Shown here piece after piece: positions 6,001 through 9,000 of a stretch of 30,415 nt of DNA. Source of the stretch: an archaeon (GTDB taxonomy: Archaea > Iainarchaeota > Iainarchaeia > Iainarchaeales > 0-14-0-20-34-12); the NCBI GenBank assembly GCA_038046645.1, contig JBBSVU010000006.1:138681-169095 (forward strand). Direction: 5' to 3'. Made by a program: the position numbers. Numbering within the stretch: position 1 is the stretch's first letter; the number at the start of each line of letters is the position of its first letter.

Positions 6001-9000
6001 GGTTATTCAGGCAAAAGATTTTTAGGATGCACAAGTTATCCAAGATGCAGGGTCACATTGCCATTGCCGCAACAGGGCGATATAGTTCCTCTGGAAGAAA
6101 GATGTGCAGTATGCGAATTCCCTGTGGTAAAAATACTTAATGGAAGGAGAAGCTTCAAGATGTGCTTGAACCCAAATTGTGCATCCAAGGAGGAATGGCG
6201 CAACAGGGCAAAGGCAAAAATGCTTGAAGCTAAAAAAACCCCAGAACCCAAAAAACCCCCAAAAAAAGAAACTAAAACAGCCAACAAACCAGATGCGAAA
6301 TCTGTTAAATAAAAACAAAGTGCTTACCATGGATAAATCCACTAAACTTCTGCCATTATTCCCAATCCTTGTAACTTTCCTGTTTTTCTCAGCATGTTTG
6401 CAGGATCCTGTAAAACTTGAAGATAATTTTTTAAAGATAAATTCTTTCTGGAAAACCGATTCTTCAGAATCTTTGCTTGATACAATTCCTTTGAAATCCT
6501 TAGATAATGCATACAGTGTTGCCAAGATTGCTGGCATCAAACAAAACCTTTCTGATTTCAACAAATCCCTTTTGGAATTTTCTTCGAGCAATGCGGCAAT
6601 TCTTTCTTCTTGGATTAGCATAAATTTTTCCATGCTTGATTATTTGGAAAATATTATGAAATTCCAGAAAAAATCTAAATCAACGATTGCCAGCATGCCT
6701 TCTTTTGATTTAAATAGCATGTCAGAAGAAAACTGCCCTTCTTTTTTAGAATTATCTGCTAGCCTTGCTTCCTTAATCCAGCAAAGTGATTCAATCAATT
6801 CCTCTTTTGACTCTTTTTATGCCCAAAATCCAAAATTATTTAATTCGAAATCTTCTTTGATAGACAATTCTGCACTTGTTGGCTTTAAAGGCCTGCTTGA
6901 GGAAGCAAATTCAAATTTTTCAAATCTCTGCACTTTTAATTCCAAAATATTCTCTTGGGTAGAATCTTTTGGGGAAGAGAACATTTGTGACAATGTTGAT
7001 TCGCTTGAAAAACAAATAATTGAATTGGAATCAATGAAATTAATTATAAAAGATATTGTGCAGAATGAATTATTTTCTGCAGATTCAGAACTTGATTCTA
7101 CTTATTTCTCATTTGAGCAGCAAGCAGAAGAATTTGGCAAAGTATATGCTTCCTTGAAATATGCCTGTGAACCGCAATAAACAATAGATTTTTTGTATTT
7201 GAGATTAAAGAAAAATATTTCTAAAAAACAAAAGATGATTAAAAATTAGAAGGGAAAGGGATCAAACATCCTCAACATTGTTGAGACCATATACGCTTGG
7301 TGGGCTTATCCCTTTTCCCTTTTTTCGATTTTTTTAATTTCTATTACGGGCAGATCCCTCCTGTCCTTTTTAATATGATAAGACTATTCTCATTTATAAT
7401 AACTATCTGGTTTTTAATGTACAAAAAGTATATTTAAAATGCCTTTTGGTGTACTATATTACTGATGAAACATGCCGTTTACCATGAAACCAGACGATGA
7501 GATAAGGCTTAGGATATTAGGTTCATTGCTTTCAAAAGGTGCAGTAAAACCTAACATTAAACAAATAAAGAGAGAAACAGGCTTTCACAAAAGCACTATT
7601 CTTTCAAGCCTTGCTTTTCTGGAAAAAGAAGGTATACTTGCCGGTTATGGCCCTAAGATTGATTTCAAGAAATTTGGTTATGCCTTGGAAGTTATTACCC
7701 TAGTTCAGGCAGATCTGTTTAATAAACCTGTTTTCGAAGAATTCCTAAATGAAGCAAAGAAAGATCCTTCAATATATTGGCTTTCCGAAATCTTTGGTTC
7801 AGGAACATATAACATTCTTATGCGACAGGTGCATGCTAATGTTGAATCCTATAATAAGCATATGCAACAGCAGTACTATAGCAAGGTAGGGAATATGCAC
7901 AAATTAATCTTGACTAAACAAGTATTTTTTACGACAGAACCAGTGTATAAAAATGTTTCAAGGACCAGATCTATTATTGAACTCATAAAAAAAGGCCGTG
8001 GCTTGGATTGATGATTATGCAAGTTGAAATTGATTTTAACAAAAGCATTGAATCAAATGCTTCTTCATATTATGATAAGGGCAAGGAGGCAAAGGCCAAG
8101 GCAGAAAGGATTCAACAGGCAATTGAAGTTATTGAATACAGATTGTCGCAGTTAGACAAACAAATAAAGCAAAAGCAGGAAATAAAGCAGGCACCAAAAA
8201 AATGGCATGAAAAATTCCATTGGTTTTTTTCAAGCAATGGCTTTTTGGTTTTAGCTGGGCGAGACATGAAATCAAATGAACTTTTAATTAAGAGGTATAT
8301 GAAACCTGATGACCTTTATTTCCATGCTGAGATACAAGGGGCAGCACACTGCATCGTAAAAACCGAAGGCAATGAGGTAGATGAAGAAACAAAGAAAGAA
8401 GCAGCTGTTTTTGCTGCAAACTTCAGCAAAGCATGGGCATCAGGCTTATCCTCAATTGATGTTTATTCAGTAAAGCCAGAGCAGGTTTCAAAACAAGCAC
8501 CTACAGGCACTTCATTATCTACAGGTGCATTTATGATTTATGGGAAAAGGGAGTGGTTCAGGAATATTTCATTAGGCATTGCAATAGGCATTGAAAAAAA
8601 AGATGACTATTATAAAGTAATCTCAGGTCCAAAAGCTGCGATAAAAAAACATTCTGCTATCTCTTTTGAAATCTTCAGGGGAGAGAAAAAAAAGAGTGAG
8701 ATAGCGCAGGAGTTAAGGGGATTATTTGAAAAAAATCTGAATCTAAGGTTAGCAACAAGCATTGATGAGATTGTTTCAATGCTGCCCGCAAGCAACCTTG
8801 AGATAGGCAAAAGGCTGGACAAGGTGTCGAATACTTCAGTGTTAACGATAAATGACTGAAACACATAATTTATTTGTTCGACCCTTTGTTGAATAAGCTA
8901 AGCCTTTAATAGTTTTATATTATTAATATTGTTCTGTTCAAATAGTGTTTATTTTTGGTTGGGAAAATGTCTAAAGAAATAGTTTTAAGGGTGCAGGATT

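Follow-up and report, generated by a model that had tools for sequence, protein, structure and literature searches.

RqcH, a factor of ribosome quality control (RQC), is encoded by two unlinked genes in the member of the Iainarchaeota studied here. The break falls in a two-residue turn between two strands of the M-domain, with next to nothing lost or duplicated. This split is the rule in three phyla of DPANN archaea and recurs within a fourth. The products of the two genes probably form a noncovalent heterodimer that acts as RqcH.

Two genes share the elements of RqcH

The window analyzed here is a stretch of 30,415 nucleotides from a 1.17-Mb genome assembly (25 contigs, 89% complete). It carries the gene for the rear half of the protein (Table 1), whose translation could also start at TTG 8008 or at ATG 8011, the latter overlapping the stop codon of the upstream gene. 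The product contains, in order, the last strand of the M-domain, the returning helix of the coiled coil, NFACT-R, and NFACT-C. Pfam detected NFACT-R with an E value of 5.7e-37 (PF05670, 127 bits), and positions 369-423 of the Pfam NFACT_N model were matched at residues 1-55. Positions 3-355 of the same model are covered by the front half at 106.7 bits (cut-off, 31). The whole genome contains one NFACT-R match, the one in the window, and the second NFACT_N match lies on contig C9, which bears out the claim of a preliminary description of this region that RqcH resides in two unlinked genes. No remnant of the opposite half was found in any frame flanking either gene.

Table 1. Coordinates of the two RqcH halves, the domains of the rear half, and neighboring genes (window positions unless stated otherwise)
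Feature	Position	Strand	Remarks
topA (type IA topoisomerase)	4186..6312	+	Conserved block, Iainarchaeota and some Micrarchaeota
Lrp-like regulator	7472..8011	+	Stop overlaps ATG 8011; weak Lrp matches, below cut-off
Rear half of split RqcH, 280 aa	8017..8859	+	Open frame ending at 8859, ATG 8017
Third strand of M-domain sheet, residues 1-8	8017..8040	+	Strand 382-387 of whole relative
Returning coiled-coil helix, residues 11-51	8047..8169	+	Conserved N14, A15, Y18, K23, K28
NFACT-R domain, residues 66-176	8212..8544	+	Pfam; D99-x-Y101-x-H103
C-terminal domain, about residues 186-267	8572..8817	+	Structural counterpart of NEMF/Rqc2 NFACT-C
cdc48 AAA ATPase	8955..11201 (TTG 8955 or ATG 8967)	+	TIGR01243 above cut-off
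Front half of RqcH, 371-aa ORF with own stop	C9:49876-50991 (L001:5877-6992), outside window		Pfam NFACT_N

The two halves are complementary. Against the NCBIfam model NF041120, the front half covers positions 3-376 and the rear half positions 381-644 of 645, without overlap. Their scores, 193 and 320 bits, are both below the 400-bit cut-off, and we therefore regard the split form as one that would work like RqcH rather than as a canonical member of the equivalog. For the same reason, genomes of this kind can be scored as RqcH negative.

The motifs of both ends are retained. In the front half, D100-R101 and E115-L-F represent the tRNA-contacting DR and E-I-M-type motifs of NFACT-N; in B. subtilis RqcH, the available portions of the structural study describe NFACT-N and HhH as gripping the tRNA anticodon loop via DR and EIM (10.1101/2020.09.03.281279). 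R101 and E115 are invariant in all 96 front halves compared. The aspartate of the DR motif is present in 59 of them and replaced by glutamate in 33 and by asparagine in two of family f6, and these substitutions may alter tailing in some lineages. In the rear half, D99-x-Y101-x-H103 is the counterpart of the DWH motif that B. subtilis RqcH requires for 50S binding. Of 114 rear-half rows, 112 have D99 and all have H103, with an aromatic or aliphatic residue at position 101; K28 is likewise unchanged in 114/114, and P257 of the C-terminal domain is invariant. According to the same portions of the B. subtilis study, NFACT-R (DWH) and the coiled-coil tip make the sole two contacts with 50S (10.1101/2020.09.03.281279).

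Pfam NFACT-C did not match the rear half. The best structural matches of its model, C-domain included, were human NEMF and yeast Rqc2. Residues 25-265 aligned to NEMF 490-1067 (Z 23.8, rmsd 3.7, 231 aligned), and the alignment with Rqc2 (Z 23.2, rmsd 3.5, 240 aligned) reached residue 1018 of the yeast protein. A search of the ESM Atlas returned NFACT-R clusters only.

A single RNA run gave coverage on part of cdc48 only, leaving the rear-half gene uncovered. A promoter scan with a sigma-70 model, which is ill-suited to archaea, produced no score above shuffles.

The cut lies in a turn of the M-domain

We located the cut on the structure that AlphaFold predicts for a whole relative of 657 aa (pLDDT 89). 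It falls in the turn that separates strand 374-379 from strand 382-387, preceded by a long helix (264-325) and followed by the returning helix (392-425), in line with the earlier placement of the cut in the M-domain hairpin. The distance from the end of the front profile to the start of the rear profile was 2 residues in 42 of the 52 whole relatives that could be scored (17/69 could not). Front halves stop at most 5 residues from the last strand in 82 of 83 scorable cases (13 were not scorable). Of 113 rear halves, 93 have a start codon exactly where the following strand begins, and 111 have one within -2 to +3 of that position; this count is partly built in, because the rear profile was made from start-trimmed seeds, which does not apply to the mapping onto whole proteins. 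In the phylum that contains the Woesearchaeota, 27 front and 27 rear halves are cut at the same turn.

Distribution of the split among DPANN archaea

NFACT-R was detected in 147 of 151 Iainarchaeota genomes, each with a short frame (134-343 aa), in keeping with the short frames noted before. The longest frame, 375 aa in G138, is a contig-edge fragment of a whole-type protein and occurs alongside a normal short copy. Pfam found the front half in at least 124 of the 151 genomes, and closer queries recovered it in 9 of 10 Pfam-negative genomes that were retested. Two apparent losses suggested by Pfam misses were rejected in this way: that in family f6, where the front half was present in 5/5 genomes, and that in G014, G028, G037, and G055, for which 4/5 genomes were positive.

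In Micrarchaeota, both halves occur in 111/111 genomes (110/110 without the unpublished G183), with NFACT-R frames of 250-421 aa. The Woesearchaeota-containing phylum (n = 111) comprised 85 split pairs, 3 whole genes, 6 genomes with the rear half only, 17 with neither, and none with the front half only; that is, the protein is split in 85 of 94 genomes with a match. In Aenigmatarchaeota, 58 of 81 genomes scored above the cut-off, 50 of them with long frames. The 8 short forms consisted of 4 true splits, with the front half elsewhere in the genome, 3 truncated genes, and 1 at a contig edge. The preliminary description had assigned the split to Iainarchaeota and Micrarchaeota and had treated Aenigmatarchaeota loci as whole. 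The former is right for both phyla but too narrow in range, and the latter holds for 50 of 58 genomes but fails for the short forms. As a rule in three phyla that recurs in a fourth, the split is a poor simple marker of shared ancestry.

Several candidates for other arrangements were discarded. Frames of 390-479 aa around NFACT-R (G217, G213, G319, and G312) proved to hold normal rear halves, the extra length being open upstream sequence. Weak matches to the front profile in genomes that lack a front half sit in unrelated frames of 527-561 and 175 aa, which resemble topoisomerase VI B and ribosomal S13, respectively.

Predicted re-association of the halves

We predicted the complex of front residues 258-371 and rear residues 1-64, each with its alignment. 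The score was 0.79, compared with 0.00 for the best of 3 controls. Of solved pairs, 116 of 157 attained the mark used for this score, as did 2 of 215 mismatched pairs. Runs shared at least 97% of contacts, and the pLDDT of the partner was at least 85. Contacts were predicted between front residues 285-335, 357, and 364-371 and rear residues 1-53. The contacts proposed earlier, 285-335 and 364-371 with rear residues 1-50, recurred at the same residues. Residues 1-10 of the rear half had no regular structure when it was folded alone, with a helix from 11 to 51; the complex prediction pairs residues 1-8 with the final strand of the front half (364-371). The prediction supports binding between the halves, although a pass may stem from likeness to the solved single-chain structures of RqcH, Rqc2, and NEMF.

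The predicted interface is better conserved than its surroundings. Counting related sequences as independent, entropy was 2.40 versus 3.06 for front columns 285-335 and their neighbors (p 1e-4, 96 split-form rows) and 1.97 versus 2.53 for rear columns 1-53 (p 0.009, 114 split-form rows). The gain in apolar residues at the interface was marginal (p 0.045-0.18). The strand and helix are missing from six NFACT-R proteins, all of them from genomes without a detected front half. On the opposing side, no front half was found in five incomplete genomes with a long rear piece, G334, G280, G351, G143, and G098.

Since the two genes between them retain all these elements of RqcH, and the cut is at an arm tip clamped by predicted strand pairing, we favor the heterodimer. 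Two separate polypeptides would assemble noncovalently into one working RqcH. The first strand of the rear half would complete the small sheet at the arm tip by pairing with the last strand of the front half, and the rear-half helix would zip onto the long helix of the front half, rebuilding the antiparallel coiled coil. By analogy with bacterial and eukaryotic homologues, the heterodimer would then bind the large subunit carrying peptidyl-tRNA through NFACT-R and the arm tip, hold the tRNA by NFACT-N, and support the template-free addition of a C-terminal tail to the stalled chain.

Gene neighborhood and a possible link to Cdc48

The rear-half gene is part of a conserved block in the order lrp, topA, Lrp-like gene, rear half, and cdc48. 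In the genome studied, cdc48, one of two paralogues, starts about 95 bases past the rear-half gene. In 52 of 60 Iainarchaeota genomes, cdc48 lies no more than 2.6 kb downstream of the rear half and on its strand; in the other 8, it was on the opposite strand within 1-4 kb in 3 and elsewhere or missing in 5. For loci with enough flank (the flanks of fetched loci were mostly about 1.2 kb), cdc48 adjoined the rear half in 35 of 39 from Iainarchaeota and 6 of 36 from Micrarchaeota. It was absent beside all 29 split and 3 whole loci of the Woesearchaeota-containing phylum and all 33 Aenigmatarchaeota loci (8 short, 25 whole). The earlier claim that the C-terminal half usually sits next to cdc48 is thus true of Iainarchaeota but not of the other phyla.

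The Lrp-like gene is an equally faithful neighbor: where the flank sufficed, it lies upstream of the rear half in 32 of 38 loci from Iainarchaeota. A PRC-barrel gene adjoins the front half in 31 of 34 loci; gene order therefore appears to be generally conserved in Iainarchaeota. Here and in G050, AMMECR1 lies 1.4 kb past the end of the front-half gene, on the opposite strand, the other loci being too short to tell. The rear half appears to have moved long ago into a conserved cluster, and the linkage to cdc48 is a weak sign of function. A functional tie between the rear half and Cdc48 is possible by analogy with eukaryotic RQC, where Cdc48 is described, in the part of the source available, as extracting chains (PMC9540759).

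Such a tie is central to one alternative, in which contact between the halves is transient: the rear half remains bound to 50S and recruits Cdc48 for chain extraction, with the front half coming and going as a tRNA carrier. In that case, the split would be adaptive and the cdc48 linkage a direct partnership. Besides that linkage and the eukaryotic precedent, the division of labor in B. subtilis speaks for this alternative, NFACT-R touching 50S and NFACT-N the tRNA only, with coiled coils that open scissor-like in one state (available portions of 10.1101/2020.09.03.281279). Against it, the split does not require cdc48, which adjoins none of the 29 split loci of the Woesearchaeota-containing phylum or the 8 short Aenigmatarchaeota loci. 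The conserved block is broad, and cdc48 is scarcely set apart from the Lrp-like gene in how regularly it occurs. The long predicted interface with strand pairing also suggests a stable complex. We consider the transient arrangement unlikely.

Other explanations of the split

We give less credence still to the idea that the two halves serve different functions or are degenerating, with the rear half a stand-alone RNA-binding NFACT-R protein and RqcH never rebuilt. Stand-alone forms do exist: three Aenigmatarchaeota genomes encode NFACT-R and the C-domain only, two NFACT-R only, and one a NUDIX fusion, and independent contexts of NFACT-R are described in the consulted part of a survey of the family (PMC4075521). 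The strand and helix are gone from these proteins, whereas the split forms retain both, with a conserved interface, together with an intact front half. Decay is further opposed by the absence of internal stop codons from the NFACT-R matches across the four phyla scanned.

The near-perfect cut, with hardly any loss or overlap, could also be expected if a split intein or RNA trans-splicing joined the halves covalently into a single chain. An intein has no space, since front halves end 0-5 residues past their strand and rear halves begin on the next, and a cysteine occurs within the last 40 residues of just 5 of 96 front halves. The conserved stop and start codons at the cut fit two translated genes, and covalent joining is very improbable.

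An assembly or binning artefact, suggested by the location of the halves on different contigs of a fragmented, incomplete genome, can practically be dismissed: both genes are internal to their contigs, contig X5 from another run repeats window positions 6800-8933 with zero differences, hundreds of genomes show this very cut, and the artefact is refuted by six genomes (G006, G257, G021, G001, G289, and G274) that carry both halves on one contig, 36-418 kb apart.

Fission or re-fusion

Trees were built from the rear region (176 rows), from both regions (92 rows), and, with a mixture model and a quick search, from 45 rows. They keep the phyla apart and group Iainarchaeota with Micrarchaeota (support 88, then 96), separate from the split forms of the Woesearchaeota-containing phylum. 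The 4 split Aenigmatarchaeota share an eight-member clade (98, 99) with 4 whole genes, and this clade is nested among whole genes, which implies repeated fission or re-fusion at one site. In AU tests on 45 of the 92 concatenated rows with LG+G4 and quick trees, a single clade of all 22 split forms was rejected (p 7e-5), as was one of the 4 Aenigmatarchaeota split forms (p 0.005); a single clade of the 18 split forms from the other three phyla was borderline (p 0.046).

At least six changes between the split and whole states are needed on the RqcH trees, and these counts are compatible with fission and re-fusion alike. The M-domain turn appears to tolerate a break, so that the split would have arisen or reverted more than once in DPANN archaea. 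In 12 Aenigmatarchaeota loci, the whole gene follows scpB. G441 and G453 have scpB and then the front half, with the rear half 3.2-3.4 kb on, past a beta-propeller gene and an ArsR-type gene. In G414, a whole gene occupies the place of the rear half and its junction is 3 residues short; the junctions of G421 and G397 are 1 and 4 residues short. The short junctions hint at re-fusion, a hint weakened by the presence of similar junctions in another, fully unsplit clade.

A bolder scenario makes the M-domain turn a hot spot: RqcH would have been cut there at least three times in DPANN archaea and re-fused in one Aenigmatarchaeota clade, and the two-piece form would be functional in itself, a 50S-docked rear subunit passing the stalled chain to the co-encoded Cdc48 and the tRNA-binding front subunit being exchangeable. 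We think this improbable; if true, it would provide a ubiquitin-free link from RQC to Cdc48 in archaea.

Comparison with known systems

A split in this family is already in print for related archaea, and the present case extends it. In the parts of Podar et al. 2013 consulted (PMC3655853), Table 1 lists a split "Predicted RNA-binding protein" in Nanoarchaeota (NEQ 438-506, Nst 176-251), and the supplement assigns both Nst1 genes to arCOG01695 (= COG1293). The genes are unlinked and broken at the "same site" in both genomes, and posttranslational assembly is assumed. Those two unlinked genes of arCOG01695/COG1293 resemble the pair described here; in those parts, the split is treated as specific to Nanoarchaeota and is given neither an RQC function nor a cut position. 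The Nanoarchaeota cut presumably falls at the site described here, judging from the split forms of the Woesearchaeota-containing phylum. The spread of the split over four DPANN phyla corrects the 2013 view of it as a peculiarity of Nanoarchaeota.

Supplementary file 3 of Padalko et al. 2024 (PMC11237513), in the part consulted, has a Cluster 73 (H2TH + NFACT_RNA-bind, "fission," K24971 NEMF/RQC2, arCOG01695) with nonsyntenic splits in 57 assemblies, including 16 from Micrarchaeota, 12 from Woesearchaeota, 8 from Altiarchaeales, 2 each from Nanoarchaeales and Nanoarchaeota, and others. Among the matches listed, Diapherotrites/Iainarchaeota and Aenigmatarchaeota are not named. The entry is one row of an automated table, which gives no site, model, neighbors, or history, and the searched portion of the main text does not mention NFACT, Rqc, or arCOG01695.

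Burroughs and Aravind 2014 describe one core NFACT architecture and a Mut7-C/AMMECR1 neighborhood, and the words "split" and "fission" were not found in the consulted part of the article (PMC4075521). A further source, as far as consulted, treats split genes in general terms only (PMC8407392). Our literature search, which mostly did not extend to subscription journals, found neither a paper dedicated to split RqcH nor a functional study of any archaeal RqcH. It also found no published account of the split in Iainarchaeota, of its exact site, of the re-association model, of the block with cdc48, or of repeated fission or re-fusion within Aenigmatarchaeota.

Ribosome quality control in archaea has so far been inferred. 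A natural two-piece RqcH places the tRNA-binding end and the NFACT-R end on different chains, which should ease experiments on the order of assembly and on the dynamics of the arm, and it indicates that the arm can do without a covalent tie. Single-chain RqcH, as represented by NF041120, NEMF (9gy4), Rqc2 (8aaf), and the B. subtilis protein (7aqc, 7as8), has the same domain order and motifs as the two halves taken together. The difference is that all of these are one chain, whereas RqcH of the archaea described here is made as two.

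Split and whole forms of RqcH in one clade

A clade of Aenigmatarchaeota (see table) contains apparent intermediates between the split and whole forms of RqcH. In two of its genomes, G441 and G453, the gene order is scpB, front half, a 3-kb block holding a beta-propeller gene and an ArsR-type gene, and rear half. In G414, the position of the rear half is occupied by a whole gene with a short junction. Re-fusion of the two halves may have occurred within this clade.

Rear-half domains where no front half was found, and a whole-type piece

Three other Aenigmatarchaeota genomes encode only NFACT-R and the C-domain, in frames of 219 to 229 aa directly after scpB, the place of the whole gene in relatives. 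No front half was found in these genomes, nor in three genomes of the phylum of G155 (titled Woesearchaeota) that between them carry a NUDIX plus NFACT-R fusion (a 277-aa frame) and two NFACT-R-only proteins (133 to 136 aa). Neither half was detected in 17 of the 111 genomes of the latter phylum. Genome G138 has a normal rear half and also a piece of whole-type RqcH at the edge of a 2-kb contig, which is probably foreign.

Divergent NFACT sequences

The front halves of family f6 are fast evolving and mostly missed by Pfam; in both of those read, the Asp of the DR motif is replaced by Asn. Residue 165 of the window's rear half, within a conserved NFACT-R loop, is Thr, as opposed to Glu in 109 of 118 close relatives. 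In G263, a single 382-aa frame gives an NFACT-R match in two pieces about 58 residues apart, an insertion within the domain.

Gene surroundings

The cdc48 gene adjoining the rear half in Iainarchaeota often has an intein with a LAGLIDADG domain, as seen in L068, and its frames reach 1,122 to 1,708 aa in about ten genomes; the window's copy has no intein. Small ORFs cluster farther downstream, with no Pfam match among those scanned, and the cluster is retained downstream of cdc48 in L065 and L070. Some begin with a putative class III (pilin-type) signal peptide. Near the front half in the window's own genome lies AMMECR1, a known neighbor of archaeal NFACT genes.

Positions of features (G, genomes compared; C, contigs; L, fetched loci; L001, front-half locus of the window's own genome)
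Feature	Position	Strand	Remark
AMMECR1 gene	L001:8421-9017	-	1.4 kb downstream of front half
AbiEii-family gene with 170-aa ORF upstream	L001:4078-5408	-	divergent from front half
Aenigmatarchaeota clade	L262 (G441:C7:10500-19500), L263 (G453:C3:31500-40500), L285 and L301 (G414), L284 (G421)		
NFACT-R plus C-domain only	L202 (G431), L203 (G399), L204 (G417)		
NUDIX fusion and NFACT-R-only proteins	L212 (G296:C3), L213 (G350), L214 (G371)		
Whole-type piece	L266 (G138:C115)		
f6 front halves	L282:1858-2970, L283:1743-2780		
Residue 165	window 8509-8511		
Two-piece NFACT-R	G263:C3:62948-63439		
cdc48 with intein	L068:5795-9775		
Small-ORF cluster	window 12524-15024
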